Part shown: positions 843 through 16,368 of the stretch, piece by piece | How positions within the stretch are numbered: position 1 is the stretch's first letter | Layout of the letters: every line of letters starts with the position of its first letter | DNA from: an uncultured Nitrososphaerota archaeon | GTDB lineage: Archaea > Thermoproteota > EX4484-205 > JAAOZO01 | Direction: 5' to 3' | DNA: 64,000 nt | Assembly: GCA_964408285.1 (NCBI GenBank) | Contig: CAYOYV010000001.1 | Span: forward strand, 128,001 to 192,000 | Made by a program: the position numbers and the translations under genes | The notes under the pieces: model-generated | What the model saw: only the letters and a program-made list of their open reading frames with translations | Database searches by the model: none | What the model was told of the DNA's origin: nothing

Positions 843-942
843 GAAGTAATTGCGTAAACATTGCTAGATTCCATCAGTCTCTTGGGGCGACAAAGACTTA
901 AAAAACATGGGGTTGGACCTGCCCCTTGGCTGGTGTAAGTGC

Positions 943-2416: not shown

Positions 2417-3939
2417 TCTATTTTCAGAATCTTGAGCTTTCTAGAGGTCTTTTTTGACACCTCTATAAATGTTTTCAATTTCCTCGATCCCTTGCGTCCC
2501 ACTGCGACAACCTCCTTCACTCTGCTCAGTAAGGGTATGGCCAACCTTACACCAAGCCCATTCAGGTCCAGATTCTCCGATCCTCCCCAAACTACCTTAT
2601 CAAAAGGAGAGCTGTTCCTCAGAAAGAATGGGACTAGACCCAATACATCGTGGAGTACAAAGAGTGACTCCCATTCTCGAAATCCGCTCCCCTGTCCCTC
2701 TGCTATCGCTTTCGTCACAACGGCTTTGTCAAGGCTACGACCGCCCTCGGGGACTATGACAATCACTTTCTTCGCACGCCAACTCCTCTTCTGGATCTTT
2801 TCAGACATGATCGCTATCTCAGGCCTTGAAAGGCTTTTCTGATCATAAGCAAACAGACCTCTTGCCTTGGCTACTCGGCTATCCGGGAAAATCGCTCTTG
2901 ATCTGCTCGATAGTGCCAAGAATGCGCAATAGAGACCCGGATGGGCTCTTGCCCGCTGTTCCAACAACTCCCAGAGTTCTCCCCTTCTGATGTGCTCCTT
3001 GATGTTCTTCATTTCAGTATAGATCGAGTGCAGATTGTGACCCGCCAGAAGTCTGATCCTCTGAGAATCGCCGATCTCCCTCAATTCCTTTGGAGTATAT
3101 TTCGAACAGATTTGACATGAACAAGGCAGGTATTCAAGAGTGGCCAGATCGAGTGTGCCCTCAGCTGTCATGTATCTGCCATCATAGGCGTAGAGGGCGT
3201 AAGAGGCTGAGTCAAACATATCATACCCAATGGCCACCAACATTCCAAGCAGCATGGGGTGGCCAGCTCCAAAGAAATGGAACGGCTTCGATCTGGAAGC
3301 CCTTTCCTTAGCGGCAATTCCCATCTCTATTAGCCTGTGATATTCATAATTCTCCATGAGTTCTACAGGAGATCCAAGAGCGAGGATGTCGAATCCCATC
3401 TTTGAGATCCTCGTGGAGCATGAGCGCACGAGATCTTGGTGCAGGCCGCCTTGCACTGGCCCGACCCACAGTATGTCCTCCCTCGTTCTCGCGGCCAATG
3501 ATCGCTCGCAGTTTCTGATGGTCTTTCTCACGGTCTGAAGGGCCCTGGCTCTGCTTGCTTTCGCTCCAGTCGGATGATCCAAGACAGTGGCGATGTCAAC
3601 GTTCAATGCCTCCTGAACGGCAACGATTTCCTCAGGCCCAGCGGATACTGTGCCATATCTCAGAACTTGATACCCGCCGGAATCCGTTTGAACAATCCCC
3701 TTGTACTCCAATATCCTATGTATGTCTCTGTCTCCGTCATCAAGAAGATGTTTTCCTATCAGATATGCATTCGTCATTATGGCTCGAGATTCGAATTCCT
3801 TCTCCAATTCTCGAGGAGGGATAACTGGCCTGTTGATGCTGATCACTGGGAGAAAAGCGGGGGTCTCAAGCTGCCCGCTCTTAGTAGATATCCTGCCGAT
3901 TCTGGCATTCATATCAGTCTTTCTGATTTCAAAAGACAA
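2410..3939 (-). CDS. tgtA: Archaeosine tRNA-guanine(15) transglycosylase
   Basis: ETPAFLPV, DSGGYQ, HFFGAGHP, FDSASY and the CSCQIC...HNL Zn site. Confidence 0.92.
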   Translation of the reverse strand: MSFEIRKTDMNARIGRISTKSGQLETPAFLPVISINRPVIPPRELEKEFESRAIMTNAYLIGKHLLDDGDRDIHRILEYKGIVQTDSGGYQVLRYGTVSAGPEEIVAVQEALNVDIATVLDHPTGAKASRARALQTVRKTIRNCERSLAARTREDILWVGPVQGGLHQDLVRSCSTRISKMGFDILALGSPVELMENYEYHRLIEMGIAAKERASRSKPFHFFGAGHPMLLGMLVAIGYDMFDSASYALYAYDGRYMTAEGTLDLATLEYLPCSCQICSKYTPKELREIGDSQRIRLLAGHNLHSIYTEMKNIKEHIRRGELWELLEQRARAHPGLYCAFLALSSRSRAIFPDSRVAKARGLFAYDQKSLSRPEIAIMSEKIQKRSWRAKKVIVIVPEGGRSLDKAVVTKAIAEGQGSGFREWESLFVLHDVLGLVPFFLRNSSPFDKVVWGGSENLDLNGLGVRLAIPLLSRVKEVVAVGRKGSRKLKTFIEVSKKTSRKLKILKIEC

Positions 3940-3983
3940 ATCTCGACGCCTTTATTAATCTCGATGCCAAAGGCAAGATAAAG

Positions 3984-4640
3984 TTGTCGAGGAGCACGGA
4001 TGAGGTACTCAGTGTGAATACCGCTCCCCGGGAGCCATGGGCAGCTCTCTCAGGACTTCCAGGGCTGGGAGCGGTCGGGGCAGGTGCTGCGTCTCTATTT
4101 CTGGAGCGATCCAATTCGAAACCGCAGATACTGAAATACCTCTTTGCCCGTTCCTCCTACATGAATTTGATTGTCTCTGAGAATCAGGTTGCGTCCCCGG
4201 GTGGATTTACCCTTTTCTATTCAGAGATCGGGCAAAAGAATGTTCCCGTAATTGTTTTGGTCGGAGCTTTCCAGCCCGTGTCACCGTTGTACCAATTCGA
4301 CTTCGCGAAGCTGTTCCTCTCGGCAGCAAAGGAGATGGGTTCGATGTATACCTTCACGTTGGGGGGATATCATTCATCGGAAGCTGGAGCCGAGAGGAAA
4401 ATCTTTGTTCTACCAAATGACTTCCAGACCTACAAGGCCTCGCTTGCTCTTAATTTCATCCTAGCTTCTGGGCAGATCAGTGGGGCAGCTGGGGTGATAT
4501 CAGGAATGTCCAAATATTATGGCTTCAGAGGAGGATGTCTCCTCGCGGAGACAACGGGTGACATTCCCGACAAGTCCGCCTCCCTTGTGCTCTATGAGAA
4601 GACCCTTCTGCTTCTCGACAGCCTCTATCCAGGCAGCTAG
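3984..4640 (+). CDS. PAC2-family proteasome assembly chaperone-like protein
   Basis: GLPGLGAVG, TLGGY, ISGAAG and CLLAET motifs. Confidence 0.75.
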   Translation: MSRSTDEVLSVNTAPREPWAALSGLPGLGAVGAGAASLFLERSNSKPQILKYLFARSSYMNLIVSENQVASPGGFTLFYSEIGQKNVPVIVLVGAFQPVSPLYQFDFAKLFLSAAKEMGSMYTFTLGGYHSSEAGAERKIFVLPNDFQTYKASLALNFILASGQISGAAGVISGMSKYYGFRGGCLLAETTGDIPDKSASLVLYEKTLLLLDSLYPGS

Positions 4641-5059
4641 GGCGGCGTTTCAGATTCCTTCATGAAGTCATCATAGACCTTTCTAACGCGATCAGCGACT
4701 ATCCCTGTCCCCTCCATCACGCCGGTCTCATCAACTCTAACCTTGTCGAGAACGATTATCACTCCTGCTTCCTCGTTATAGCTGACGACCTTTCCGAATA
4801 TATGCTCCAACCTGTCAGCCAGCTTCCTCAGGTCCATGAAAGACTTCGGAATGAATATTGCCTTGACGGAGTTGCCGCTGAGAACTATCTGGAAGTACCT
4901 TTTCTCTCCTTCCTTCTGAACATCACTCATGATTAGCGATAGAGAAACGGGATCGAAGGCGGTCAAGGTCCCCGAAAAGCGGCTAGAGTCGGTTGTTTCC
5001 ACTATCACTGGCTTACCGACCATTTTCTTCAGCTGTGCCTCTAACGTCGCCCTAAGCAT
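4637..5059 (-). CDS. Lsm/SmAP3-type RNA-binding protein
   Basis: N-terminal Sm fold (GKPVIVET...GTLTAFD...L) plus a C-terminal extension typical of crenarchaeal SmAP3. Confidence 0.8.
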   Translation of the reverse strand: MLRATLEAQLKKMVGKPVIVETTDSSRFSGTLTAFDPVSLSLIMSDVQKEGEKRYFQIVLSGNSVKAIFIPKSFMDLRKLADRLEHIFGKVVSYNEEAGVIIVLDKVRVDETGVMEGTGIVADRVRKVYDDFMKESETPP

Positions 5060-5205
5060 CTTGCCTGGGAAATGCGCGGTCGATTATTATTGATTTCGCC
5101 CCACGAGACTGCTTATCGCTAGAAGTGAGCATTCTCCACATCCGACGGACTCCCCGAGTCAATTTCATGCGCCTGAGTTATCTGGAAGCGCCTCCTCAAA
5201 AGCTC

Positions 5206-6162
5206 ATGGAAAGACACCCTGAATCACCAGATGGAACAGCCTGTCCGGAATGCGGCGGAAAGATAATATGGACCGAGAACGAAGCCGCATGTAGAGGGTG
5301 CGGCTTGGTGATAGAGCCGTCCTTGTTGGATCGATCGGGAGGACAGAATCAGGCCGACTCCTTCGAGACAGACGGGCCATCAGGGCTTCAAGACATCAGA
5401 ATGGGCTCCCACTTGTTCTCCAATCATTCAAGTCCTAGAGGCCTTAGGAGACTCTCGTCTGTGAATCTATGGTCAAGAGGCGCCAGATATTGCCGGCTGA
5501 GCAGATTCTCACGATTAGCGTACATGCTTGGAGATAAGCTCGGAGTCTCCGATCTTACGTGCGAAGCAGCTCTTCTCCTCTTGGAGAGCGCTGCCCGAAA
5601 AGCAGAAGGAAAAAGGGCCAATGTCCTAGCACTGTTAGGCGCTGCATTCATAATAGCATCTCGCAAGCTCGAGGCAGGAAAAGTGGTTTGCGCAAGCGAT
5701 ATTCGGCGAAGTCTGGATTCCTTGGGATTCTCTATGAGGCCGGGGCATATCCTAGACAGTCTGAGCTCGTACAAGGACATCGGCCTATATGTGGCGTCGA
5801 CTCCCCCGATCGACTGTGTGGACGAGATCTTCTCGAGAATCGACTGGACATCACCAACGCATGGGCTCCCCCCCAGGGAAAGATATGAATTCCTAGAGGA
5901 ATTGAAAAGGAACGCAAGGAACCTGCTCTCATTGATCGACCTTCGGGAGATTGGGAGCAACCCTCGTGCTCTTGCCTCCTGCGCAATATACGTATCCTGG
6001 AGGATAGCAGCAAGATCAAGGCAACTTAGCAAGCGCGATATCTCACATGCCTTCATGGCAAGGATCTCTGGACTGGCAGAATATACTATCAGGGAGAATT
6101 ATGAACGCCACTTTCGGCAGCTTCTTGTGGCCGCTGAAATACGACCAAGAATCGATGAGTAG
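5206..6162 (+). CDS. Divergent TFB (TFIIB-family) paralog
   Basis: Zn ribbon CPECGG...CRGCGLVI, two cyclin-like repeats (AAFIIASRK; NPRALASCAIY) and a C-terminal HTH (ARISGLAEYTIRENY). Start uncertain (5125/5167/5206). Confidence 0.75.
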   Translation: MERHPESPDGTACPECGGKIIWTENEAACRGCGLVIEPSLLDRSGGQNQADSFETDGPSGLQDIRMGSHLFSNHSSPRGLRRLSSVNLWSRGARYCRLSRFSRLAYMLGDKLGVSDLTCEAALLLLESAARKAEGKRANVLALLGAAFIIASRKLEAGKVVCASDIRRSLDSLGFSMRPGHILDSLSSYKDIGLYVASTPPIDCVDEIFSRIDWTSPTHGLPPRERYEFLEELKRNARNLLSLIDLREIGSNPRALASCAIYVSWRIAARSRQLSKRDISHAFMARISGLAEYTIRENYERHFRQLLVAAEIRPRIDE

Positions 6163-6565
6163 CTTGGACGATCACGTCCCCTTGCATTGCCATGGTAGAG
6201 ATATGAAGTTTGACATAGTATGCCGTCGCATTCTCAAGCGCATACTCTGACAATTCCCACTTGCACATCAAACCGCGAGGACTATTCAGACCGGAAGCCA
6301 ACCTGTCAAGTCCTGTCTGAAGGGCGCGATCGATGACTTCCTCAGGAATGCCAGAATCGGAAAGGTAGGACTGATTCAATGCGGCCAAGGCTCCTGCTGA
6401 CTCTTGAAGGATTCTGTGTACATCCTCTTTCAGCAGGACGACATGGAGCCTGTTGTGCAGAGTCAGAGAGGCAGATTCCCTCAGTCGCGCCAGATCGACG
6501 ATTATCGGGAATGAAGTCAGAAGAATGACTAAGCTGACTCCCAAGAGAGGAGATGATAGTTTCAT
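6089..6565 (-). CDS. Pilin-like/membrane-anchored protein
   Basis: Single N-terminal hydrophobic helix. ATGA overlap with the upstream gene; last gene of the peptidase operon. Confidence 0.55.
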   Translation of the reverse strand: MKLSSPLLGVSLVILLTSFPIIVDLARLRESASLTLHNRLHVVLLKEDVHRILQESAGALAALNQSYLSDSGIPEEVIDRALQTGLDRLASGLNSPRGLMCKWELSEYALENATAYYVKLHISTMAMQGDVIVQATHRFLVVFQRPQEAAESGVHNSP

Positions 6566-6909
6566 TCGTCGAACGCCATGATGTAGCTTATGCCTTCTTC
6601 CCGGATCAAGATTGAAATCCTGGAATATAGCGTCTCGCCTGTTCTAACGTTGTCCACCAAACCGTAAGTGACAAGAATGAAATTCTGCTTCAGTCCTCTG
6701 TTCAGCCTGGGGAATCTATCAGGAGCTAGTTCCAGACCAAAGATCCTTGTGCGTCGGCTACCAAGAGACTCTGCGATGAGTCTCTCGAGATCTTCGATCG
6801 AACTCCCATTGTACGTTTTCAGCATCGGTTTTGCAAAGGTCGACAGGAGGACAAGACAGCCGATCCACACGCCCAGATTGGCCAGAATGCTGTCCACCTC
6901 GCTATTCAT
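6562..6909 (-). CDS. Pilin-like/membrane-anchored protein
   Basis: N-terminal hydrophobic helix (ILANLGVWIGCLVLL) and tight operon coupling. Confidence 0.55.
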   Translation of the reverse strand: MNSEVDSILANLGVWIGCLVLLSTFAKPMLKTYNGSSIEDLERLIAESLGSRRTRIFGLELAPDRFPRLNRGLKQNFILVTYGLVDNVRTGETLYSRISILIREEGISYIMAFDE

Positions 6910-6913
6910 GGGA

Positions 6914-7060
6914 TCAGATCCCCTCCAGCACCTTTATCAGCAATTCCATCTCTGAAAGATCGTGGATCATTATTTCGCCGAGCAATCTTATTCCCATGAT
7001 GAAAAGGCACAAACCGATGACCGCAATGCCGAATTCCATGAAAGCCCCTAGTTTTGTCAT
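6914..7060 (-). CDS. 48-aa pilin-like protein (not in ORF track)
   Basis: MTKLGAFMEFGIAVIGLCLFIMGIRLLGEIMIHDLSEMELLIKVLEGI. TGATG overlap with 7060..7407; fills the operon gap. Confidence 0.6.
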   Translation of the reverse strand: MTKLGAFMEFGIAVIGLCLFIMGIRLLGEIMIHDLSEMELLIKVLEGI

Positions 7061-7407
7061 CAATGCTTCTCCCATCTAATGGCAATTGCACCCGAGGGAT
7101 TACTAGTGATTTCAGCCTCAGGAGGAAGAACTACCGAAGTCCTGCGCCCATCTATTCCCAAGAGGCATATCTCCCTTGACCTCGTTACTGCTATTCTGAA
7201 CAGGCTCGTATTCGTCATGCTCAGAGAAATGGTGATTTGCTCGCCTTCTTCCAGTTTCGGCGCTCTCGTCGCATCCGTGAGAAGTCTCGCAGCGTCATCG
7301 TAGGTCCTTCCATAGACGCCGACTAGGAAGTTGAGATAGGGGATGAGAATCGACAGGGATATCAACAACCAAGCAGCTGTTTCACCAAGGTATTCTAGAT
7401 GTTCCAA
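7060..7407 (-). CDS. Pilin-like/membrane-anchored protein
   Basis: N-terminal hydrophobic helix followed by a beta-rich-looking tail; overlaps both neighbours. Confidence 0.55.
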   Translation of the reverse strand: MEHLEYLGETAAWLLISLSILIPYLNFLVGVYGRTYDDAARLLTDATRAPKLEEGEQITISLSMTNTSLFRIAVTRSREICLLGIDGRRTSVVLPPEAEITSNPSGAIAIRWEKH

Positions 7408-7604
7408 GTGGGAAACCCCTCGGGAAAAAAGCCCTCATAGAACGCACAGAAATGCAATGCCCTCACCTCACCGAATGTCTTCCCATATGCCTCTAGTATA
7501 GCTCTCAGTAGTGGGATCACGTCGTTGATGAAGACCAACAACGCACCTATTGAGAGGAAGATTGAAAGCGCGAAAATCAATGTCTTTTCAATTAACAAGC
7601 TCAT
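7395..7604 (-). CDS. Small pilin-like protein
   Basis: M-SLLIE followed by a hydrophobic helix (Glu at +5 after Met removal). Lies 2 bp after the peptidase stop. Confidence 0.55.
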   Translation of the reverse strand: MSLLIEKTLIFALSIFLSIGALLVFINDVIPLLRAILEAYGKTFGEVRALHFCAFYEGFFPEGFPTWNI

Positions 7605-7606
7605 TG

Positions 7607-8179
7607 CTAGATCAGTATCTGTCTGAATGCCAGCCCTATAAGCGCCCCTAATTGGAGATAAGGGATCAAAGGCGCTGAGACGATCTTCCGTTCAGGCTTG
7701 CCGCAAAAGAGAGACAAAGACCATAGGAAGGGCAAGAACGACGCCGCCAAGCAGACAACGCTCCTTCTGGAGATGGCTCGATCGAGGCCTTCTTTCCGAA
7801 GCAATATGGAGAAGGAGTTGATCATCATTACTTCAGCGATTGTGAGAGACAATGGTTCGCAAACGGAAACAATCACTGAGATGCCGCTAATCTCTATCGG
7901 CTTTGGGAAAACGAGCACAGTGCCAACTACATACAAGACATCCGCAAGCCCTGTCATCCCAAGAAGAATCATTCCTGACATCAGAAGGATTGGAATCAGG
8001 TTATTTGTAACCAATTCCAGAATATTCACCGGCTCATATGAAGCTAGCAAGAGGAATTGAATTAGGCACATGACAGAATAACCGACAATGAGAAGGATTG
8101 AGACTTCCTTGTGTAGAAGGTCCTCGATTGCGATAAGAAGAGAAATCGCTAGGAGCACGCAGTGCATCAGAGAAAGCAT
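7607..8179 (-). CDS. Prepilin peptidase (A24/TadV-PibD-like)
   Basis: Polytopic membrane protein with IEDLLHKEV (first Asp), GLAD (GxGD-like second Asp) and C-terminal PLIPYL. Confidence 0.75.
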   Translation of the reverse strand: MLSLMHCVLLAISLLIAIEDLLHKEVSILLIVGYSVMCLIQFLLLASYEPVNILELVTNNLIPILLMSGMILLGMTGLADVLYVVGTVLVFPKPIEISGISVIVSVCEPLSLTIAEVMMINSFSILLRKEGLDRAISRRSVVCLAASFLPFLWSLSLFCGKPERKIVSAPLIPYLQLGALIGLAFRQILI

Positions 8180-8233
8180 CAGTCATGTCATTCAATTGGT
8201 GCTCATAAGGGCCAATCATCCTTGTTTTCTGGT

Positions 8234-8389
8234 TTGTCCGAAAAGGATCCACTTCTCGAAGCAATAGTCGATGAACTCAGGAGGCTTAGATCAGAGATGA
8301 GCAAGATCAGATCGAAAATGGATGACATTCAGGAGAGGATTTTGGAACTAGAAAGGAAGTGCACAATCACGGAAATGGCGGACGGATAG
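8234..8389 (+). CDS. Small coiled-coil protein
   Basis: Heptad pattern IVDELRRLRSEMSKIRSKMDDIQERILELERK. TTG start assumed; ends 6 bp before the ATPase. Confidence 0.55.
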   Translation: MSEKDPLLEAIVDELRRLRSEMSKIRSKMDDIQERILELERKCTITEMADG

Positions 8390-8395
8390 AAGACC

Positions 8396-10228
8396 ATGGC
8401 CACAGCAGCAGTATCCTATCGTCCCGAGATCGGACTTCTCCATATCCAGGCATCTGAGATCGGAGATGATATTGAGCAGCCCAAGAGGTTGGCTTGCTTC
8501 TACCTCAGATTCGCGGGTAGGACCGAGAGATTGAAGGTGGAAACGCCTAGAGGAATTGAAGAAATCACGTCAGAGAAGACAATCAGGGGGCTAATGGAAA
8601 GATCGAAAGCTATCTCAAGGACAATCAGAGCGGCGTCCTTTGACAAGCAGTTTTCGAAGTCAGTAGAGCTCGCTGAACTCAGCGTATATCCCGCGATAGG
8701 CCTTGCGTATTCTCCTTCCCAAAGAATCCACAAGCCACGGCGGGTCACATACGCCTTCTATTCCGAGGATGAGGCTACAAGACTGAATGTTGGGGAAAAG
8801 AGCACCAACTTGACCAAACACCCGCCTATGTCTCATCTAAGGATCTCAATTGACGAGGATAGACATCTCTATTCCGTCCAATACCTAGCCGAGGCCTACA
8901 ATAGGCTGATTTTAGATGTCTCTTTCTTCATGAGGGGGCTGATCTGCAAAGAGTTTCTCGACAGAGGCAGGTTCTCGGAATTTGTCATATTCCGTCAATC
9001 CATAGGAAAGTCATACCTCAGGAATGTGTCCGGAGGACTAACTGAGGATCTGGAGTCTTCGATTATTCATCATTCTTCGTTTAGATCGATTGGACTCTCA
9101 AAGCTCTATCCACTTCTCGTTGACGAAAAGGTCCAAGAAATATACCTCGATCGCGTGGGAAAGAGAATATACGTGGATCACTCTCTTTCCGGCAGACTGC
9201 TGACGAACATCCGTCCCCGAAGACAGGACATTGAAGCTTTGGTGACAAATCTCCGGCGGAATTCAGGGAGGGAGCTTGACGCTCGTGTTCCGTCAATAAA
9301 GGGTGACCTCCAAACAGATCTCTTCATCTCCAGAGTGGCAATAGACTGCTATCCCTTGGTTGATTCCGAATACGCTTTTGACATCAGGAAATTGAGACCC
9401 CGCCCCTTCTCCTTGTTGGAACTAACTAGACAGGGCTCAATAGACGACGTACTAGCTGCAATCCTAATATCAGCTATTGTCTCTAAGATGAATATTTCAA
9501 TAGTGGGTGAGCCAGGAAGCGGAAAAACGACGCTTCTCTGTGCCCTAGACCTTGTGACTCCTCCTTGGTGGAGAAAAATATACATCGAGGATGCTGTCGA
9601 ATTGAGGTCCTACAGTGAGTCCAATTCAGCCCATTGTCTGAGGATAATAGTGGATCCGTTCGAAAGCTCAGAATCTTCTAGGAGGAAATCAGATGAGATA
9701 ATCAAGGTTCTCCATCGGAATCCTTCGTATGTTGTTCTAGGAGAGGTACAATTCAAGGATCACTTCAAAGCTCTGTTCCAAGCGATGGCAGCTGGAATAA
9801 AGCTCATCCACACTGCTCACGCTCCTTCAGGCAGGGGCTTCATCCAAAGAGTCGTCAACGTGTATGGAATTCCTTCAGAGCTCGTGTCGAACCTGGATGT
9901 GCTGGTTGAGATGGAGAAACTCGAATCTTTCCGAGACGTCAGAAGAGTCGTTTCAGGCGCATATTTCCTGACGGGCAATGACCCAAGTGGTAAGGAACAG
10001 GGGCAACAGAGCTCGCTGAGAGAGATTGGCAGATGTCCCCGCATTGAGGATGGCCATCGGATTCTTGAGGAACTCGAGACAAAGAACAGAAAGCACAGCG
10101 GATCAGTCGTCGCCTTGTTTGACCAAGTCTTGGATTCAATACATACAGCTCAGGAAAACGGATCGGAGATCCTAAGATTTCCTCTCCAACATCCCCGGAG
10201 GAACGACGGCTCAGGATCGACAGGGTGA
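8396..10228 (+). CDS. Type II/IV secretion ATPase (VirB11/TadA/CpaF family)
   Basis: Walker A GEPGSGKT, Asp box IEDAVEL, Walker B VVLGEV, His box HTAHA. Confidence 0.88.
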   Translation: MATAAVSYRPEIGLLHIQASEIGDDIEQPKRLACFYLRFAGRTERLKVETPRGIEEITSEKTIRGLMERSKAISRTIRAASFDKQFSKSVELAELSVYPAIGLAYSPSQRIHKPRRVTYAFYSEDEATRLNVGEKSTNLTKHPPMSHLRISIDEDRHLYSVQYLAEAYNRLILDVSFFMRGLICKEFLDRGRFSEFVIFRQSIGKSYLRNVSGGLTEDLESSIIHHSSFRSIGLSKLYPLLVDEKVQEIYLDRVGKRIYVDHSLSGRLLTNIRPRRQDIEALVTNLRRNSGRELDARVPSIKGDLQTDLFISRVAIDCYPLVDSEYAFDIRKLRPRPFSLLELTRQGSIDDVLAAILISAIVSKMNISIVGEPGSGKTTLLCALDLVTPPWWRKIYIEDAVELRSYSESNSAHCLRIIVDPFESSESSRRKSDEIIKVLHRNPSYVVLGEVQFKDHFKALFQAMAAGIKLIHTAHAPSGRGFIQRVVNVYGIPSELVSNLDVLVEMEKLESFRDVRRVVSGAYFLTGNDPSGKEQGQQSSLREIGRCPRIEDGHRILEELETKNRKHSGSVVALFDQVLDSIHTAQENGSEILRFPLQHPRRNDGSGSTG

Positions 10229-10238
10229 GCGCCAACAG

Positions 10239-10790
10239 ATGGATGGTTTGACGAAATCCCGAAACCGTGTAGCCTCACTCGCGAGAATCACCCGAAGGCG
10301 CTTCCTGCCCATGTCAAAGCGCAGTAGACCGGATTCCTATCTGTTTTTCCTATTCTTCTCCCTCAGGAAAGCCGGTCTGTCGTTTCCGGAGGTGTGGCAT
10401 CGGTTGGCAGAAATCGAGAACGAGCCCGCTCTGATTACCTCGATGGTCAACAGGCTGACCCAAAGGAATCGTTACAGAGGATCAAGTCTATCTGGCAAGC
10501 TACACCGTTGGGAAGGCTTGCTTAACATGAGAGATGGGGTCAGATCCAGACTTGTCTTGCTTGAGACAAGTATCAGAAATCGATTCAGAATAGGAGCTGC
10601 TAACATGCAGATGAAGCTCATAGTGCTGACATTCTTTCTTTTCGTTGTGCCTTTTTCAGCCTTAGTGTCATGGTCATACCTTCTCGGGGCTAGAACGGAT
10701 TTGCTGGTTCTTTTCGTCCTCATGTATCCTCCCTTCCTAAGTATAATTTCGGAATGGGCCACGAAGACCGATGAGGAACTGGTCTGCTGA
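10239..10790 (+). CDS. TadB/TadC-like membrane platform protein
   Basis: Helical cytoplasmic part (LRKAGLSFPEV) plus two C-terminal TM segments, directly after the ATPase. Confidence 0.55.
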   Translation: MDGLTKSRNRVASLARITRRRFLPMSKRSRPDSYLFFLFFSLRKAGLSFPEVWHRLAEIENEPALITSMVNRLTQRNRYRGSSLSGKLHRWEGLLNMRDGVRSRLVLLETSIRNRFRIGAANMQMKLIVLTFFLFVVPFSALVSWSYLLGARTDLLVLFVLMYPPFLSIISEWATKTDEELVC

Positions 10791-11574
10791 ATTGGGTGGT
10801 ATGCTTTGGCCAATATCTTGCGTGTTAGCATCAATCGTCATATCGACAGCGCCAATGGATGACGAGTTCAGGATAGCTCTGGCTTCAATGCTCTCCTTGT
10901 TGCTCGCCTTTGCGGCCTCACTTCACAGCGTCCAAAGAAAAAGGGAGATTCGCCAGAAAGAGCAGCTTCTCGATTTCTATTCAGGTCTTTCCGAGAATTT
11001 CTCAGCAGGATTGGGACAGGAAGCATCGTTCCTTATGCAGGCCAACTCGAGCGAGTTGCTCAGCAGACAAGGAAGATCTTGGATCATTCTTGAGTTGGCC
11101 GGGGGAATGAAACTCGAAAGGCTCCTTGAGAAAACGGCTGAAAAGGGGAGGGGGCTTGAGAGACAATTGCCTGAAGTCTTCGGACATCTGCTTCTGAGCG
11201 GCATGGCAAGGACAAGTGTGGCATCAGAGATCCTGAACCTCTGGACAGAGAATCTAGCCATATCGACAGAAACTGACCGCTTGTTGTCGGAGACCTCATC
11301 TAGGGCCCAATTCCTTTACTTTCTGAATTCGTTTGCTTTCGGCTTTCTCGCTTCCTCATTCAGTCTGATCCGAAAGATGGCCAATCCCTTTGATGCCTTG
11401 ACTCGCGTTTCGTCGAATCCGTTGGTTCCACTGGCCATTTTCGCGTTTCAGTCGACTATCTACCTGCTTGTGTGCAAGAGGTTCAGCTTCACAAGACAGC
11501 TGGAAAAATACGCGATATCCGCATTGATCTTCTGGGGGACCTTCTTGTGCTTCCAAGGCGTTCTGGATTATTGA
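10771..11574 (+). CDS. TadB/TadC-like (T2SSF-type) membrane platform protein
   Basis: N-terminal TMs, LLDFYSGLSENFSAG helical domain and three C-terminal TMs. Confidence 0.6.
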   Translation: MRNWSAELGGMLWPISCVLASIVISTAPMDDEFRIALASMLSLLLAFAASLHSVQRKREIRQKEQLLDFYSGLSENFSAGLGQEASFLMQANSSELLSRQGRSWIILELAGGMKLERLLEKTAEKGRGLERQLPEVFGHLLLSGMARTSVASEILNLWTENLAISTETDRLLSETSSRAQFLYFLNSFAFGFLASSFSLIRKMANPFDALTRVSSNPLVPLAIFAFQSTIYLLVCKRFSFTRQLEKYAISALIFWGTFLCFQGVLDY

Positions 11575-11585
11575 TTCATTGGGGA

Positions 11586-11593
11586 TTATATAC
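11586..11593 (+). promoter_or_regulatory. TATA box of the major pilin gene
   Basis: TTATATAC about 20 nt upstream of ATG 11614 (leaderless geometry). Confidence 0.55.
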
Positions 11594-11613
11594 GCTATAG
11601 CCCCTATCCGGCG

Positions 11614-11814
11614 ATGACTCAGAAAAAGAAAGCAAGGATAAAGGCTTCACAGCTGATAGAGGAGGGTCTGCTGATAGTGTTGGCTCTTGTGATGGTCGGC
11701 GCAGTATTCGGCGTCTCCAAGTCCTTGGTAACGGGCATAAGCGGCTTTTTCGATAATATAATAAAGGGAATAGGGGACATCGCATATAGTCTCTTCGGTT
11801 GGGTAATTCCATAG
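11614..11814 (+). CDS. Short class III signal-peptide pilin (Flp-like major pilin)
   Basis: Basic leader MTQKKKARIKA, then SQLIEEGLLIVLALV with Glu at +5 and a hydrophobic helix. Confidence 0.75.
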   Translation: MTQKKKARIKASQLIEEGLLIVLALVMVGAVFGVSKSLVTGISGFFDNIIKGIGDIAYSLFGWVIP

Positions 11815-11831
11815 CCTCTCCTTGATCTCAG

Positions 11832-13700
11832 ATGAACGAGAAGTCCGAGCGGGCCATATTCGTCAGCCTTGCAGCAATGTCATTGATCCTTTTCGGATTG
11901 AAACTTCTTTCTCGTGACCTTGTTTCGAATCAGCTGTCTTATCTGCTATTGACAGTGGCCAGCTGCTCTTGCATCTTCGCTTTGACATATTTCATCGGAA
12001 GGTCAGTTCGCGAGATATCAGTATCGTCATTTCTGGATGGCAGCCGTAGTGGCGACGTTGCGATATTGAAAGGAAAAAAGGATACCATACTCATCAAGGG
12101 GTTTGAGGTCATAGAGGGCCCTGACCCAGATCCAAAGTACTCGCAGTCGGAGAGCAGATCTCCACAGGCCCAAACGCCCCTTGAAGCATTGGTCAGGGTA
12201 GGAGTACAAGCAAGAATCATTACATCTGTTTCTACACCATCCAATATAATTTCCTCCTCGGCTGGCAATGATATCGAACGACAAGGGTTGATTAGAACTG
12301 TCGTCCTTGTCTTCGAGAAATGCGAATCCTCTGAGTCCGCAGAAGCTAGGAATATTCTCGATAGGCAGTGTGAGGTGGCGAAGTCTGCAATGCTGACGTC
12401 AACTAGGAATTGCCGAGTCAATCAACTGATTGGAGAAGCCCTGCTTGATTATCTCGAGGGGCTCTATCTTTACGATCATCGGAACCAGGGCGTTCGTCAA
12501 GCTGCGACTTTTCTCAGAAGCGTCTCCTTGGCTCATTTCCAGGATGGCAGGTTTATTGACATAGTCGGAGGCTCCTTCATTCCGCCTCCCCAGAACACCG
12601 AGAGAATCCATTTGGGCAACACTCTTTATGCAGGGGTCATGGGTCCAGATTGCACTATCCCACTATCCTCCTTATCTAGGCATGTGACAATATTCGGCTG
12701 TACTGGGGCAGGAAAATCGAATACGGCCAAGGCTTTGCTCATGACTCTTGTGAATAGGGACATACCCGTACTTGTTCTGGACTTCCACAATGAATACCTA
12801 GGCCTCATGGCTGCCATCGGCGGCCTAGCGATACGATTCGGGGGCGAATGCCATATTGATCTGCTGAACCCAGTCGATGCTGGCAATTTCATAGATCATG
12901 TCACAGTCGTTGCCGATGTCTTCGATCACGCCTATCACTTCACGGCCTCTCAGCAATTCGTCTTCAGAGAAGCACTGATGAGAACCTTCGCCTCCTGCAC
13001 ACTCGGCGGGAACCGCCCCACACTTGAGGATGTTGTGAATGAGATTGAGCGATATGAAACCAAGACCTTCTACGAACATGAGACGAAATTCGCCTTGCTG
13101 AGGAGGCTCAAACCATTGATCGAGGGAGAGGGCAGGAAGGCATTCGTCAATGGCAGACCGATGAACGTTCACGAACTGTCCAAGAGGCCTTGCGCACTCG
13201 CATTCGGAGACCTGAAGAATACCGGTCTAAGGAAACTGGCAGCAACAATGATCTTGGCCCTCCTCTACGAACTGAGACTATCCGAGGGGGCAAGTCCCAT
13301 CAGACATGCAACCATAATAGAGGAATCTCAGAATGTTCTGCCCTATAGGCTCAGAACAGAGGAAGCGACGATCATCGAGAGAATGTTCTTTGAGATGAGA
13401 AAGTATGGAGAATGCCTAGTTTTGCTGGCCCAATTCCCAACACAAATATTCCCGGACGTGACAAAATCTGCTGGGACAAAGTTGGTTCACAGACTGACGG
13501 AGGCTGGAGAGGCGGAGCTAATCATGGATGTGATGGGACTGGGGAGAAATCTGTATTCTCAGCTTAAGTACTTGCCGGAGGGACGGGCCATTGCCCTCAT
13601 TGAAGGTCTTAGCTACCCGATCACTATTCAGATCCCTCTTGCAGAGTCATATTCGCCACCTTCACGGCTTCAGCCAGTTCATTCGATTGATACAGCCTAG
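11832..13700 (+). CDS. Membrane-anchored HerA/VirB4-like (DUF87) ATPase
   Basis: Two N-terminal TMs, RHVTIFGCTGAGKS, LDFHNEY, Walker B IIEESQ, EMRKYG and AQ motifs. Confidence 0.85.
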   Translation: MNEKSERAIFVSLAAMSLILFGLKLLSRDLVSNQLSYLLLTVASCSCIFALTYFIGRSVREISVSSFLDGSRSGDVAILKGKKDTILIKGFEVIEGPDPDPKYSQSESRSPQAQTPLEALVRVGVQARIITSVSTPSNIISSSAGNDIERQGLIRTVVLVFEKCESSESAEARNILDRQCEVAKSAMLTSTRNCRVNQLIGEALLDYLEGLYLYDHRNQGVRQAATFLRSVSLAHFQDGRFIDIVGGSFIPPPQNTERIHLGNTLYAGVMGPDCTIPLSSLSRHVTIFGCTGAGKSNTAKALLMTLVNRDIPVLVLDFHNEYLGLMAAIGGLAIRFGGECHIDLLNPVDAGNFIDHVTVVADVFDHAYHFTASQQFVFREALMRTFASCTLGGNRPTLEDVVNEIERYETKTFYEHETKFALLRRLKPLIEGEGRKAFVNGRPMNVHELSKRPCALAFGDLKNTGLRKLAATMILALLYELRLSEGASPIRHATIIEESQNVLPYRLRTEEATIIERMFFEMRKYGECLVLLAQFPTQIFPDVTKSAGTKLVHRLTEAGEAELIMDVMGLGRNLYSQLKYLPEGRAIALIEGLSYPITIQIPLAESYSPPSRLQPVHSIDTA

Positions 13701-13836
13701 AACTGGATTTCTGCTTGGGTGCAATCCTGGCTCCACAATAGGGACATTGCCTCCGCTTTGTCCCGACCTTCATGCCGGTGTAGCGTCCACAATCGGAGCA
13801 TCTAACTAGAAGATACAGAGTCCTTGCCAAGTTCAA
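13624..13836 (-). CDS. Zn-ribbon protein (DUF1922-like)
   Basis: YLLVRCSDCG...CPYCG, downstream of AK6. Confidence 0.7.
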   Translation of the reverse strand: MNLARTLYLLVRCSDCGRYTGMKVGTKRRQCPYCGARIAPKQKSSSRLYQSNELAEAVKVANMTLQEGSE

Positions 13837-14401
13837 GAAACCTCCTGATCTCTTCTTCCTTCATCTTGAGAGTCCAATCTATGGAAGGTCTGCTGCCCAC
13901 GAATCCGGTCTCGATGAAGCGTCGGAGAGCTCTGCTGAGCTGGCAGATGGTCTTACCAGTTGAGTCTATTTCGAATACATGCGTCCTGTCCTTGAGCTCG
14001 GATGAGATCAGCCCTATGAACTCAGCAATCGAATTGTCCTTTGCTTTCTTGGCTCCGTAGCGCCTCTGCAATCTCCGATATAGCTGCGAGGGCTCCAATC
14101 TCATCAGGAAGATGCCAGCCTTCGACTCCTTAGGTACAACATGGTGCGAGAAAGAACCATCTAACAGAACAACACGGTCTCCCCTTTCACGGACGAGTTT
14201 CGCTATAGCTTTCTTGAGCCTTCCCATGTCCGCAACGTATGCCTCTCTGCCCCTGTCGTAGCTCCGATAGATGTGTTGTTTCCTGACAAGCTCACCTATT
14301 TCGATATATCCATAGCCGGATTCCCTTGTTGCGTGTCGGCATAAGGTTGTCTTGCCAACCCCCGGGGTGCCCGTTACTGCAATTACCCTTGCTCTCGTCA
14401 A
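13802..14401 (-). CDS. Adenylate kinase, AK6/Fap7 family
   Basis: VTGTPGVGKTT and RLQRRY...KAKDN motifs. Confidence 0.85.
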   Translation of the reverse strand: MTRARVIAVTGTPGVGKTTLCRHATRESGYGYIEIGELVRKQHIYRSYDRGREAYVADMGRLKKAIAKLVRERGDRVVLLDGSFSHHVVPKESKAGIFLMRLEPSQLYRRLQRRYGAKKAKDNSIAEFIGLISSELKDRTHVFEIDSTGKTICQLSRALRRFIETGFVGSRPSIDWTLKMKEEEIRRFLELGKDSVSSS

Positions 14402-14612
14402 TGCCTAAGTTAATGTGGGATCAGGTTATAATAACCTAATCTGAGTCGGTTGGCTGGAACCACCAGATATTGGGACGAAGGCTTTTGATTCAAGAAAATG
14501 CAGGGAATGCCACACGCGGACTCCCAGAAACGGATCGAAAAGGAGAAGCCCAAATATGAGTGATCTGAGATCTCCGCAATCTTAATCAATTGCTGAGAGA
14601 ACGGACAGAGAG

Positions 14613-14714
14613 GCTCCGGTGGTGTAGTCCGGTCAAGTTGGCCGATAGCATGCGAGCCTCTCGGTAATCTGAGGGGGAGAGCTCGCAACCCGGGTTCAAA
14701 TCCCGGCCGGAGCA
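14613..14714 (+). tRNA. tRNA-Glu(CTC) with two introns (14636-14646 in the D-loop; 14664-14679 at 37/38)
   Basis: Acceptor GCTCCGG/CCGGAGC, anticodon stem CGAGC/GCTCG, T-arm CCGGG TTCAAAT CCCGG. Removing both inserts gives a canonical cloverleaf. Confidence 0.9.
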
Positions 14715-14739
14715 CCTCGAATACTCGATGAGGGGAAAT

Positions 14740-16368
14740 TCACTCCTGTTGCTTTTTCTCTGGCATCTTCATCGAGAGCAACATGTCATCGATCCTAAGG
14801 AGTATTGATGCCAACTCCGTCGACGAATTCAGTATCGTCCTCACCGTTCTAAGTGGCTCCCATATTCCTCTCTTCTTTGCATCGGCTATCTCGCCCTTGA
14901 CCGAATCTATGCCGACATAAGTGCCCTTCTTGTTTGAGTGGGCGGCTCTGAGGTCGCCCAGAGCCTTTGTTACCTTCATCCCTGAATTGTCAGCTATGGC
15001 CTGAACGACATCCGTTAGGGAATCGGAGAAGGCCTCAATGACCATCGCCATCTCCCCCTTCTTATTGGTAGAATATCTTTTGGTTCGGATTGCCAGTTCA
15101 GCGAAATCGGATGCTCCGGTCGGAACGACCTTAGGCTCTGTGAATAGCATTTGGATCCCTGCTAGTGCCTTCTTGATGGCTCTCTCGTTCTCCTTCATGA
15201 GTTCCTTGTTGACTCCCCTAAGAAGGATGGACACCGATCTTGACTTGAGACCGCCTTCGATCATGACGGCCTTTTCGTTTTCTAGCTTCCTCTCCTCCAC
15301 TACAGAGGCGCTTCCAAGGATTGCAGGCGTAACGTCCAGATAGTAGCTCACGATTTTGCCTCCTGTGGCTCTCGCCAATTTCTCTATGTCCGATCTCTTG
15401 ACATTCTTGATGGCCAGAATCCCTGCCTTGGCCAAAGAAGAGCTCGAGGTATCGTCGATACCCTTCTGGCATATCAGCACATTCGCCCCGCTGTCCAAAA
15501 CCTTCTTGATCTTGTCTGTCACAGACTTCCTTTCTTCGGCCTTTAGCTTCATATAGGACTGCGGATCCGTGAATTCCAGTTCAGACGATATCTCTGTTTT
15601 CTTAACTTCCAATGGGAAGTCTATTATTGCGATCCTTGCTCCAAGTATCCTGTCTGGCATGTTGGGGTGAACTATCTCCTTCTCGATTATCAGTCCCTTG
15701 ACCAGTGACGATGAAGAAACATCTCCCCCGGCCTTACTGATTATTGCCACATTATCTGAGTCAAGCTTCATCTGCCCGTCAATCTGCTCAGAGACGCTGT
15801 CGACTGCCTCCATGATTAGATCGGTGAACTTGTCTGACGCCTGTAAGTCGCTTCTGCTAAGCGTAGGAAGTAGTATGGTCCTCACCACGTTCCTTACCCC
15901 TTCCTTACTCGATGGAGGAGCATTCATGGCCATTCTCCCCAGAATTGCAGTACAGAACTTGAGCGCGTCGGCGTATCCTTGGGCTACTATTGCAGGGTGA
16001 ATGCCCTTCTCATACAGATCTGCACCATGCCTAACTAGCCTTGAGGTCAGGAAGATAGCCCTAGATGAGCCATCACCTTCATTCTTATCTAATGTCTTTG
16101 CCGCTTCTACATATAGCTTCCCGACTGGGTGCTCTATGTTGGCCTCAGAGAGAATCGTGATGCCACTCTTGCTGTAAGTCACATCCCCGAAGCTCCCGAC
16201 GAGCATCTTGTTCAATCCTCGGGGACCAATGGATGTCCTGACGACCTCGCCGACTATGGAGCTAACAGACAGAATGTTGGACAGTGCGTCTTCCCCACTC
16301 GTCCTAGCCACGTTCTCTTTCATTATGTACACAGGTTGACCCCGAATTTGAGCCGGAATGGCTTCCAA
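14740..16368 (-). CDS. Group II chaperonin (thermosome) subunit, divergent
   Basis: GPRG.NKML, QKGIDD and LLRIDD motifs. ATP motifs are altered (GDGSSR, SKSG). Confidence 0.9.
   Translation of the reverse strand: MEAIPAQIRGQPVYIMKENVARTSGEDALSNILSVSSIVGEVVRTSIGPRGLNKMLVGSFGDVTYSKSGITILSEANIEHPVGKLYVEAAKTLDKNEGDGSSRAIFLTSRLVRHGADLYEKGIHPAIVAQGYADALKFCTAILGRMAMNAPPSSKEGVRNVVRTILLPTLSRSDLQASDKFTDLIMEAVDSVSEQIDGQMKLDSDNVAIISKAGGDVSSSSLVKGLIIEKEIVHPNMPDRILGARIAIIDFPLEVKKTEISSELEFTDPQSYMKLKAEERKSVTDKIKKVLDSGANVLICQKGIDDTSSSSLAKAGILAIKNVKRSDIEKLARATGGKIVSYYLDVTPAILGSASVVEERKLENEKAVMIEGGLKSRSVSILLRGVNKELMKENERAIKKALAGIQMLFTEPKVVPTGASDFAELAIRTKRYSTNKKGEMAMVIEAFSDSLTDVVQAIADNSGMKVTKALGDLRAAHSNKKGTYVGIDSVKGEIADAKKRGIWEPLRTVRTILNSSTELASILLRIDDMLLSMKMPEKKQQE

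Follow-up and report, generated by a model that had tools for sequence, protein, structure and literature searches.

We propose that positions 5206 to 13700 of the window, the 64,000-nucleotide stretch of archaeal DNA analysed here, hold an old, vertically inherited chromosomal module of the Thermoproteota in which a dedicated TFB paralog and a small Flp/Tad-like pilus are combined with a CedD-type translocase that ends the pilus operon, a reading we hold with about even confidence. By analogy with the Sulfolobales system, the module would serve DNA uptake or exchange. The TFB paralog would turn on both divergent operons, possibly upon DNA damage or other stress as with TFB3. The pilins would then be trimmed by the peptidase and built into a short pilus by the pilus ATPase together with the TadB- and TadC-like platform proteins, and this pilus may establish cell-cell contact or bind DNA. 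Presumed to be a hexamer with 12 transmembrane (TM) helices anchoring it in the membrane, the CedD-like ATPase would move DNA across the membrane, most likely inward as with CedD. If this inference holds, the pilus and the CedD-like ATPase would form a complete motor set, CedB and VirB4 having been looked for in the genome and not found, and the cluster suggests how the DNA exchange machinery of these archaea was first organised.

In the ORF list of the window, every gene lies where the original prediction had placed it, with a divergent TFB paralog and two opposed operons bounded by housekeeping genes. One flank has TGT, PAC2 and LSm, the other a DUF1922 Zn-ribbon protein, a Fap7-like kinase and the thermosome. 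The minus-strand operon (6089-8179) contains a 190-aa prepilin-peptidase-like protein (7607-8179) and five small ORFs, each with one N-terminal hydrophobic segment. The former has six hydrophobic segments and gave no match in its own Pfam scan; two of the three orthologs scanned gave weak, near full-length matches to Peptidase_A24 that fall below the cut-off (E 0.0069 and 0.0021). Among the small proteins are one of 69 aa whose N-terminus is kept in relatives (7395-7604), a 115-aa TadE-like pseudopilin candidate with an LEY motif at its N-terminus, as judged by eye (7060-7407), and a 53-aa candidate for a second, minor Flp-like pilin (6914-7075), the leader of which, likewise read by eye, ends in KLG and is followed by AFMEFG. 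The remaining two are a further 115-aa protein, a candidate minor pilin with a single weak ortholog match (6562-6909), and a 158-aa candidate minor pilin or pilus accessory (6089-6565) for which searches with family models returned no match.

The plus-strand genes are packed as an operon, with intergenic gaps of 6, 10, -20, 39 and 17 nt. It begins with a small coiled-coil protein (8222-8389), listed from a GTG at 8162 with the TTG at 8222 being the likelier start, which sits before the ATPase in every lineage inspected. The type IV pilus assembly ATPase of the T2SSE/VirB11 family (8396-10228; PF00437, E 6.7e-17; FlaI model, 86.8 bits) falls in a 'module' clade that an SH-aLRT support of 100 sets off from FlaI, BasE-like and further pilus ATPases, and groups with none of the seven pilus ATPases from the two Sulfolobales-type (f21) genomes sampled. 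A TadB-like platform candidate (10239-10790) is proposed from its position and its two C-terminal TM segments, profile searches that included solved structures having returned no match. It is followed by a TadC-like platform protein (10771-11574), which has one T2SSF-type domain, look-alikes in the Atlas (feature score 0.92-0.93, TM 0.64 to T2SSF clusters) and orthologs with weak PF00482 matches (E 0.005-0.12). The 66-aa Flp-like major pilin (11614-11814) has a leader ending in K-A, followed by SQLIEEGLLIVLALVM, with Glu at +5, and is 56-71% identical across the order, above every other gene compared for the same loci (thermosome, 41-54%). The pilus machine is thus made up of the peptidase-like gene, the minor pilin candidates, the coiled-coil protein, the ATPase, a split platform and the major pilin. 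A TATA-like TTATATA (11586-11592, plus strand), some 22-28 nt 5' of the pilin ATG, is a possible internal promoter for a transcript of the pilin and the CedD-like gene. The latter gene (11832-13700, plus strand, 622 aa) starts 17 nt after the pilin stop, as originally noted, leaving no space for a terminator between the two, and in relatives its start overlaps or abuts the pilin stop. The gene-for-gene recurrence of this arrangement in relatives places it far beyond chance.

The TFB/TFIIB paralog (5206-6162, plus strand; ATG at 5206 within an ORF of 5125-6162) is divergent, with a Zn ribbon and two degenerate cyclin repeats. Alone, it matches the TFIIB Zn-ribbon model below threshold (24.6 bits against a cut-off of 29), and a profile of 14 orthologs matches TFIIB structures (E 1.3e-11) and aligns with the two canonical TFBs of the genome over 258 columns (hhalign probability 99.1, E 4.4e-19). 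Its place on the chromosomal backbone is the one taken by tfb3 (reported as saci_0665 / SiRe_1717) in Sulfolobales-type genomes. There TFB3 is truncated (166-195 aa in the loci inspected), whereas the paralog described here is full length, and the Zn ribbon is the only part of the two that aligns by sequence. As TFB3 is reported to switch on the ups and ced genes in Sulfolobales, we presume by analogy that the TFB paralog is a dedicated activator of the module.

The ATPase that closes the operon (DUF87, E 1.7e-14) has two TM helices (residues 8-26 and 38-56, in agreement with the original prediction), an N-terminal domain (NTD) and a motor domain of the VirB4/HerA/TrwB type. The original comparison with the Ced system stands inasmuch as the ATPase is Ced-related; its nearest characterised relative is CedD and not CedB. 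When nine module ATPases were compared with five proteins passing the CedD cut-off, the alignment spanned 465 columns and took in the NTD (hhalign E 1.3e-63), whereas the alignments with CedB (E 2.3e-14) and repair HerA (E 3.2e-24) covered the ATPase domain only. The NTD by itself matched that of CedD (probability 83, E 8.9e-6) against an E of 0.5 for the NTDs of CedB and HerA. On these profiles the ATPase is a distant, full-length homolog of CedD, which is also the best NCBIfam model, with a score of 138.6 bits against an equivalog cut-off of 600 and an identity of about 26% to proteins that pass it. Identity with the NurA-associated repair HerA was ruled out by its 100/100 separation in a maximum-likelihood tree and by E-values favouring CedD by about 40 orders of magnitude; the same tree does not settle the branching among the CedD-like clade, CedD, CedB and other DUF87 ATPases. 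In the predicted structure (mean pLDDT 75.8) the motor domain is modelled with the fold of the hexameric DNA and type IV secretion system (T4SS) ATPases VirB4, HerA and TrwB (Z 31.8 for the VirB4 C-terminal domain, 28.5 for HerA and 26.6 for TrwB, behind a top match of 33.4 for the DndH C-domain), and 21 family members show no variation at the Walker A, Walker B and Arg/Lys positions.

At least two named lineages keep the arrangement in full, those of the Brockarchaeota-titled and the Methanosuratincola/Methanomethylicota-titled records. In the Brockarchaeota-type lineage, to which this genome belongs, all 23 pilins are preceded by the module ATPase and followed by the CedD-like gene, and the TFB-like gene is present at 22 of these loci, the exception being cut off by a contig end; the TFB-pilus-CedD-like order recurs in 10/10 loci of the Methanosuratincola-type family f11. 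The TGT-LSm...Fap7-Ths backbone on which the module stands is itself conserved across the Thermoproteota, and proteins passing the CedD cut-off adjoin the thermosome gene on a TGT-LSm-RpoG backbone in 5/5 inspected loci of the Sulfolobales-type family f21, in which a short TFB-like gene lies on the opposite side of the thermosome gene. The CedD-like gene here adjoins the thermosome gene in the same manner as bona fide CedD and is its positional ortholog. This raises the rather unlikely explanation that pilus and ATPase are neighbours by inheritance, the CedD-like gene being a backbone gene that has stood beside Fap7 and the thermosome since the early Thermoproteota and works alone, importing DNA with other partners or performing another membrane-linked DNA task, and the upstream pilus being an ordinary adhesion pilus. 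Consistent with this, the CedD-like gene stays in place without the pilus module in f7 (5/5 loci), f16, f20 and f21 (5/5 loci), the TFB, ATPase, platform and pilin genes are kept in f27 and f36, where the CedD-like gene is absent and Fap7 and the thermosome immediately follow the pilin, and in genome G177 the two parts lie on separate contigs. This separability implies that the ATPase is not required for the pilus and that the two may be adjacent in part through inheritance of the gene order. Against the explanation by inheritance stand the tight same-strand junction of pilin and ATPase described above, the retention of the CedD-like gene within 5 kb downstream of a module-type ATPase in 38 of 48 genomes from several families, and the trees of the two ATPases, which agree, wherever they are resolved, in how they group the lineages (own order together; f11 with f38). 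Moreover, TFB3, the Ups type IV pilus and the Ced genes, cedD included, are reported to form one regulon in Sulfolobales. Our preferred reading of pilus, translocase and regulator as one module agrees with the original prediction and departs from it in that the arrangement has the look of an ancestral state and not of a recent fusion, and in that its parts are separable.

An improbable explanation is that the CedD-like ATPase serves the pilus and not DNA, as a retraction or pilin-extraction motor or as the engine of protein secretion. A second motor would make sense in archaea, which lack PilT. The gene closes the pilus operon, with the major pilin gene just before it, the two TM helices could contact the platform or the pilin, and VirB4, which is reported to energise T4SS pilus biogenesis, is the top structural match among secretion and DNA-transfer motors. 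The full pilus module of f27 and f36 nevertheless persists without this ATPase, and we know of no HerA-clade ATPase that acts as a type IV pilus motor. CedD is, moreover, reported to be needed for DNA import and not for cell aggregation. A mobile element, whether conjugative or integrative, and an anti-phage system based on HerA are both disfavoured as very improbable. In their favour are weak matches to families of conjugation ATPases (TrwB_AAD_bind, E 1.7e-5; TraC; TraD) and to the PADLOC HerA/mad8 models (at most 58 bits); those from PADLOC are, however, all generic and weaker than the match to CedD. Throughout the phylum the locus occupies one chromosomal position, flanked by the same housekeeping genes, its GC content is level with the flanks, VirB4 was not found in the genome, and the 19 ORFs scanned (2410-16368) gave no match to integrase, relaxase, Sir2 or DUF4297 families, which bears out the original view that the locus does not look conjugative.

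The module is most readily compared with CedD, reported in 2025 as a second Ced ATPase (saci_0667 / SiRe_1715) and as essential to the import of DNA by S. acidocaldarius and Sa. islandicus. Its partners in Sulfolobales are CedA/CedB and a VirB2-like pilus instead of a type IV pilus. Orthologs are reported from Sulfolobales, Desulfurococcales and Acidilobales; Thermofilales are likewise reported to have CedD and Thermoproteales TedD, other lineages going unnamed in the accessible text. Both proteins share full-length homology including the NTD, two N-terminal TM helices and an FtsK/HerA-superfamily motor, and both are encoded next to the thermosome gene on the TGT-LSm backbone, but CedD stands alone whereas the ATPase here closes a type IV pilus operon in a genome where CedB was not found. 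The Ups/TFB3/Ced regulon likewise unites a TFB paralog, a type IV pilus and a CedD-type ATPase, with tfb3 and cedD on the same backbone as their counterparts here; its parts, however, are scattered and joined by regulation only, whereas here they form one locus with a 66-aa Flp-type pilin. Bacterial Tad/Flp and archaeal Epd-like pili resemble the pilus in that the pilin is short, of Flp type and has Glu at +5, the platform is divided between two genes of one domain each, and the system has a peptidase of its own. They differ in that the present locus lacks a TadZ/FlaH-type second ATPase, has components that, the ATPase excepted, fall below Pfam cut-offs, and carries a CedD-type ATPase after the pilin. 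Bacterial competence pili, whose DNA motor is cytoplasmic, and Thermus transjugation, in which uptake by a type IV pilus is combined with the HerA-like TdtA/HepA, share the working principle only, in that a type IV filament goes together with a hexameric DNA motor. Within the locus, neither a channel nor a receptor of the ComEC/ComEA type was recognised, and the Thermus HerA-like proteins are reported to act in export, outside the pilus operon.

We found no earlier account linking a type IV pilus, a TFB and a CedD-type ATPase in the accessible literature, and the gene set was not found among the archaeal type IV pilus clades in the accessible text of Makarova et al. 2016 and Denise et al. 2019. 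The accessible text of the former describes a subclade 4D (Thermoproteales) with a type IV pilus-like ATPase, a protein of 4-5 TM segments, a TFIIB homolog and RPB8 (RpoG), without pilins or any secreted protein and with no mention of a HerA-like ATPase. A TFIIB homolog in a pilus-ATPase locus beside RpoG is the feature it shares with loci of f29 and f36, where RpoG adjoins the TFB-like gene. In f29, an XPD-type DNA helicase lies directly after the CedD-like gene.

The locus described here is conserved and vertically inherited: the last gene of its Flp-type pilus operon encodes a CedD-type motor, and a TFB paralog is dedicated to it. The gene map originally predicted for window 5206-13700 is borne out by the ORF listing and family scans, with the genes where it had placed them. 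The left flank holds an archaeosine tRNA-guanine transglycosylase (TGT, 2410-3939, minus strand), a PAC2 proteasome chaperone (3984-4640) and an LSm protein (4637-5059, minus strand), followed by the TFB-like gene (ORF 5125-6162, ATG at 5206), identified by family scan and profiles, and by a minus-strand operon (6089-8179) in which five small ORFs have a single hydrophobic segment apiece, at the N-terminus, and a further gene encodes a 190-aa protein with six. The plus-strand operon opens with a coiled-coil ORF, taken from the ORF listing, and continues with a T2SSE ATPase (8396-10228; PF00437, E 6.7e-17, 61.6 bits against a cut-off of 24.9), an assembly ATPase of the kind that serves archaeal type IV pili (Tad/Epd-like), two membrane proteins, a 66-aa pilin (11614-11814) and a 622-aa ATPase, DUF87 by family scan, with two TM segments (11832-13700), separated by gaps of 6, 10, -20, 39 and 17 nt. 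A Fap7-like kinase and then a thermosome subunit, both from family scans, form the right flank, and the GC content of the locus is even with its flanks.

The window copies of the two membrane proteins, presumptive platform proteins, have no Pfam match, and profile searches of solved structures returned no match for either. The first (10239-10790, plus strand) is a TadB-like candidate on position and topology only, and the second (10771-11574, plus strand) is TadC-like on the weak PF00482 matches of its orthologs together with Atlas look-alikes (feature score 0.92-0.93, TM 0.64 against T2SSF clusters). A weak case can be made that the 190-aa protein may be the prepilin peptidase: the window protein has no Peptidase_A24 match, and two of the three scanned orthologs match at E 0.0069 and 0.0021, below cut-off and near full length.

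The window pilin has no Pfam match and was recognised by motif, as a class III signal peptide together with a hydrophobic helix that has Glu near +5. The major pilin leader ends K-A and is followed by SQLIEEGLLIVLALVM, the core of which is invariant across 16 aligned sequences; in the window SQLIEEGLL follows the leader, placing Glu at +5, and in relatives the leader ends in K/R then A/G. The variant of the Methanosuratincola-type family, from records that bear the titles Candidatus Methanosuratincola or Methanomethylicota, ends its leader in R/K-G and continues with SPLVEEGLLLG. Within the order (loci L013-L032) pilin identity is 56-71%, the highest of the genes compared for the same loci (thermosome 41-54%, LSm 41-61% with one locus lacking LSm, pilus ATPase 37-45%, terminal ATPase 29-44%). 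Since pilins usually evolve fast, such conservation is unusual and hints that the pilin may have a conserved binding partner. A TATA-like TTATATA at window 11586-11592, about 22-28 nt upstream of the pilin start, suggests that a separate strong promoter inside the operon may drive a transcript of the pilin and the CedD-like gene. The 3′ end of the latter is overlapped antiparallel, by 77 nt, by a DUF1922 Zn-ribbon ORF (13624-13836, minus strand), which also shares 35 nt with the Fap7-like gene on the strand common to both and was recovered by tblastn in the same place in 8 of 23 loci from the source genome's lineage.

CedD was reported in 2025 as a membrane-bound FtsK/HerA-superfamily ATPase that both S. 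acidocaldarius (saci_0667) and Sa. islandicus (SiRe_1715) require for DNA import, and it is read as VirD4-like in one paper and as half of a split VirB4 in the other. In the parts of these two papers covered here, orthologs are placed in Sulfolobales, Desulfurococcales and Acidilobales, and Thermofilales are listed with CedD and Thermoproteales with TedD; CedD is reported there from hyperthermophilic Crenarchaeota only. The CedD model (NCBIfam NF053655, equivalog cut-off 600 bits, taken as the threshold of membership) is the best NCBIfam model for the terminal ATPase, yet at 138.6 bits over model positions 208-525 the score lies below that cut-off. Seven of 201 Thermoproteota genomes scanned pass it, all of the Sulfolobales-type family f21, as does the S. 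acidocaldarius control genome, and many other families score 138-270 bits. Repair HerA models give 42.5 and 40.9 bits, the CedB model has no match in the NCBIfam scan, and VirB4_CagE has none at E <=0.01; against the sequences of solved structures the family profile matches HerA best (E 3e-25) and VirB4 weakly. A search for related ATPase loci by the Walker A pattern only led mostly to unrelated bacterial loci.

Of these comparisons, profile against profile gives the clearest result. A profile of nine module-linked terminal ATPases aligns by hhalign to five proteins above the CedD cut-off at E 1.3e-63 over 465 columns (query 76-600, CedD 60-534), with the N-terminal domain (NTD) included, whereas CedB (E 2.3e-14, 323 columns) and repair HerA (E 3.2e-24, 339 columns) align over the ATPase domain only. 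The NTD alone matches the CedD NTD moderately (prob 83, E 8.9e-6) and the CedB and HerA NTDs at E 0.5, and homology to CedD therefore extends over the full length, including its specific N-terminal domain. As in CedD, there is an N-terminal membrane anchor (TM segments 8-26 and 38-56; model helices 3-29 and 34-60) and an intact P-loop motor, with Walker A (G289-K295), Walker B E498 and R523/K524 invariant in the family. When 31 sequences are placed in a maximum-likelihood tree, the ATPases linked to the module group as one clade with 99/99 support, which stands in a polytomy with CedD, CedB and the other DUF87 ATPases of the genome.

The grouping with repair HerA that the original prediction had named as its counter-case does not appear: HerA is split off at 100/100 and only its ATPase domain aligns. 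With a pilin and the Zn-ribbon and Fap7 genes as neighbours, we reject an identity as the HerA of a HerA-NurA-Mre11-Rad50 system. Membership in a VirB4/T4SS conjugation machinery is likewise rejected, there being no family-level VirB4 score and no VirB2, VirB6 or relaxase partner at the locus; none of the 19 ORFs scanned (2410-16368) matched a relaxase or VirB2/VirB6 family, in keeping with the original expectation. The AlphaFold model has a mean pLDDT of 75.8, with most of the motor domain above 85 and the NTD at 35-87. Over residues 113-610, which the fold comparison covers, the motor domain matches the DndH C-domain (Z 33.4, rmsd 2.9 Å, 331 residues aligned), the VirB4 C-terminal domain (Z 31.8, 3.1 Å, 340), S. 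solfataricus HerA (Z 28.5, 3.5 Å, 325), the TrwB coupling protein (Z 26.6, 3.2 Å, 334) and FtsK (Z 17.8, 4.7 Å, 245), and the predicted fold would put the protein among hexameric DNA and T4SS motors without choosing among them.

The terminal ATPase is present in 24 of 25 other genomes of the order, the exception being a 70%-complete genome. A pilin-profile scan of species-representative genomes gave 23 loci from the same lineage, 8 in records titled Candidatus Brockarchaeota and the remainder in records titled Thermoproteota, Nitrososphaerota, Thaumarchaeota, Crenarchaeota or 'uncultured archaeon'. The synteny of TFB and HerA-like ATPase with the pilus genes on which the original prediction depended holds in these relatives: the module ATPase lies upstream of the pilin, and the CedD-like gene and Fap7 downstream, in 23/23, and a TFB-like gene is seen in 22, the remaining locus ending at a contig end. 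In the Methanosuratincola-type family (f11) the ATPase, pilin and CedD-like genes follow in order in 10/10 loci, nine of them with a TFB-like gene and the tenth cut. The start of the terminal ATPase overlaps or abuts the pilin stop in several relatives. Genome G004, a bin 57% complete, holds two diverged copies of the whole locus on contigs C12 and C17 (L013/L015 and L002), which may represent a mixture of two strains.

Across the wider sample, a profile of the module ATPase found 48 of 201 genomes at E <=1e-60, and 38 of these have a CedD-like gene on the same contig, no more than 5 kb downstream (37 by coordinate comparison of the two scans and one, L199, by inspection). Three loci (L198, L200 and L201, of families f36 and f27) carry a complete TFB/ATPase/platform/pilin module followed directly by Fap7, leaving the usual CedD-like slot empty. 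Of the others, a first genome carries the two genes on separate contigs; in a second the CedD-like gene is on another contig, away from any pilus genes; a third is interrupted by a contig break, a fourth has its ATPase at the end of a contig and a fifth gave a weak ATPase match, which leaves two uninspected. In L199 (11333-15185; genome G130, family f29) the pilin is followed on one strand by a CedD-like gene of 419 aa that lacks TM segments, then by an XPD/Rad3-type helicase (DEAD_2, HBB and Helicase_C_2 domains) and Fap7. Among pilus ATPases, those of the module fall into a separate clade (100 SH-aLRT) that excludes FlaI, BasE-like and other pilus ATPases from four genomes as well as the source genome's second pilus ATPase, on contig C9; set against the pilus ATPases of two Sulfolobales-type genomes in a tree, the clade again stands alone. 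The trees of the module ATPase and the CedD-like gene agree where resolved, with the order together and f11 with f38.

A common backbone, TGT, LSm, (RpoG), ..., CedD or CedD-like, (Fap7), thermosome, surrounds these genes. Bona fide CedD adjoins a thermosome gene in 7/7 short and 5/5 long loci, and the terminal ATPase takes the same position as cedD on the TGT-LSm backbone, with Fap7 between it and the thermosome gene; we therefore read it as the positional ortholog of CedD. In f21 the order is TGT-LSm-RpoG-...-short TFB-like gene-thermosome-CedD (5/5 loci), and in f7 it is thermosome-CedD-like-x-RpoG-LSm-TGT (5/5), with no pilus or TFB match and with x, in the two loci with ORF calls, a 116-124-aa ORF without family match. 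The CedD-like gene lies between RpoG and Fap7-thermosome in two of five f16 loci, the backbone being less complete in the other three, and in one f20 locus with no LSm match. A TFB-like gene and the pilus module stand between LSm and the CedD-like gene in all 23 loci of the order and all 10 of f11, and upstream of the CedD-like gene in one locus each of f10, f34, f38, f37 and f29, where the backbone is partly visible.

The TFB paralog by itself gives a sub-threshold Zn-ribbon match only; a profile of 14 orthologs matches TFIIB and Brf structures (best E 1.3e-11) and can be aligned across 258 columns to both canonical TFBs of the genome (hhalign prob 99.1), and PF00382 is matched by five of the 14 orthologs and not by the window protein. 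A Zn ribbon and two cyclin repeats are thus present, and the protein is a full-length, strongly diverged TFB paralog. Against the truncated DNA-damage TFB3 of Sulfolobales the alignment is confined to 28 columns of the Zn ribbon (E 1.5e-8). The common backbone position is suggestive only, and the paralog may be regarded as a positional counterpart of tfb3, a correspondence that the sequence comparison does not support. The published tfb3 genes (saci_0665 and SiRe_1717) lie two genes away from cedD, a spacing that fits the f21 gene order. RpoG (RPB8-like, PF16992) adjoins the TFB-like gene in L198 (14395-15888) and L199 (5832-7299), a pairing also described for Thermoproteales subclade 4D loci (Makarova et al. 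2016).

In the source genome, 93.7% complete, the CedB model has 0 matches at E <=0.001, so that the terminal ATPase does not co-occur with CedB there, and all that VirB4_CagE yields away from the locus is a fragment of 18.5 bits. Contig C9 (about 800-9300; L040, L049, L055) carries another type IV pilus locus, a canonical one, which encodes a 703-aa T2SSF protein with two domains, a canonical Peptidase_A24, an ATPase of 576 aa that scores 342 bits with the FlaI model, and a pilin of 216 aa whose leader is class III-like. Three more DUF87 ATPases without TM segments are found at C2:64058-65518, C22:7500-8963 and C18:8238-9710 (L034, L036, L037), the C22 and C18 copies grouping together in the tree. 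The C2 copy is preceded by a 958-aa helicase-like ORF and followed by a 399-aa ORF, and this may be a pair of the HerA-NurA type.

That the parts of the locus act together in DNA uptake or exchange is a reading for which we see about equal weight on either side. It draws on what CedD is known to do, on the regulon that joins TFB3, Ups and Ced in Sulfolobales, on the packing of the operon and, in one lineage, on the XPD-type helicase after the CedD-like gene; counted against it are the separability of the parts, an adjacency that is perhaps partly inherited, the lack of an identified channel protein and the absence of CedB and VirB4 matches in the source genome. The pilus module and the CedD-like ATPase could instead be independent neighbours, as each occurs without the other and some of the adjacency may be inherited order; set beside the operon packing and the Sulfolobales regulon, this strikes us as unlikely, though it is the account to be taken most seriously after joint function. 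Separability in both directions also implies that the ATPase is not a core pilus component, which weighs against its being a motor directed at the pilus. We consider that account rather improbable; should the ATPase act on the pilus and not on DNA, type IV pilus motors of this kind would be new. A defence-system identity is rejected, the PADLOC HerA/mad8 matches being generic (<=58 bits), and a mobile or defence element of any sort is very improbable.

A wider evolutionary model can also be put forward, which we hold to be possible yet doubtful as a whole. The DNA-exchange apparatus of ancestral Thermoproteota (TACK) would have been one locus, comprising a TFB3-type activator, an Flp-type type IV pilus and a CedD translocase between LSm/RpoG and Fap7/thermosome. 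The scattered TFB3-Ups-Ced regulon of Sulfolobales would be its dispersed descendant, and the pilin-less TFIIB-ATPase '4D' loci of Thermoproteales would be its remnants. Brockarchaeota- and Methanosuratincola-type archaea would still run the original version, in which a pilus and CedD, without CedA/CedB or VirB2-like pili, would make up a complete machine for natural competence or cell-to-cell DNA import.

To our knowledge archaeal DNA exchange is understood only in Sulfolobales, where the genes for Ups, Ced and TFB3 lie at separate places. Our results extend the CedD family to Brockarchaeota- and Methanosuratincola-type archaea, one of which lineages includes cultured methanogens, where a CedD-type gene closes a type IV pilus operon that has a TFB paralog to itself. 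They offer, for lineages with no such system described, a concrete candidate for natural competence or DNA exchange, as well as a possible evolutionary account of the co-regulation of TFB3, type IV pilus and cedD in Sulfolobales, and a suggested origin for the puzzling TFIIB-linked, pilin-less pilus loci of Thermoproteales. Makarova et al. 2016 describe TFIIB homologs in many archaeal pilus loci and a pilin-less subclade 4D (Thermoproteales) with ATPase, membrane protein, TFIIB and RPB8; outside its supplementary tables, the parts of that paper covered here use 'HerA' only as a superfamily name, and no HerA-like partner is seen in the corresponding parts of Denise et al. 2019. The literature searched, supplements of Makarova 2016, Recalde 2025 and Wu 2025 aside, did not connect CedD, Ced or any HerA-like ATPase either with type IV pilus operons or with Brockarchaeota, Methanomethylicia or Bathyarchaeia, nor did it connect pili with Methanosuratincola.

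Inspection of the f21 and f7 loci identified a conserved 116-132-aa ORF without family match directly upstream of cedD or the CedD-like gene and on the same strand (L091:10842-11240, L092:10804-11196, L104:9188-9544, L093:10888-11238, L094:10127-10501), which is possibly an unrecognised partner of CedD.
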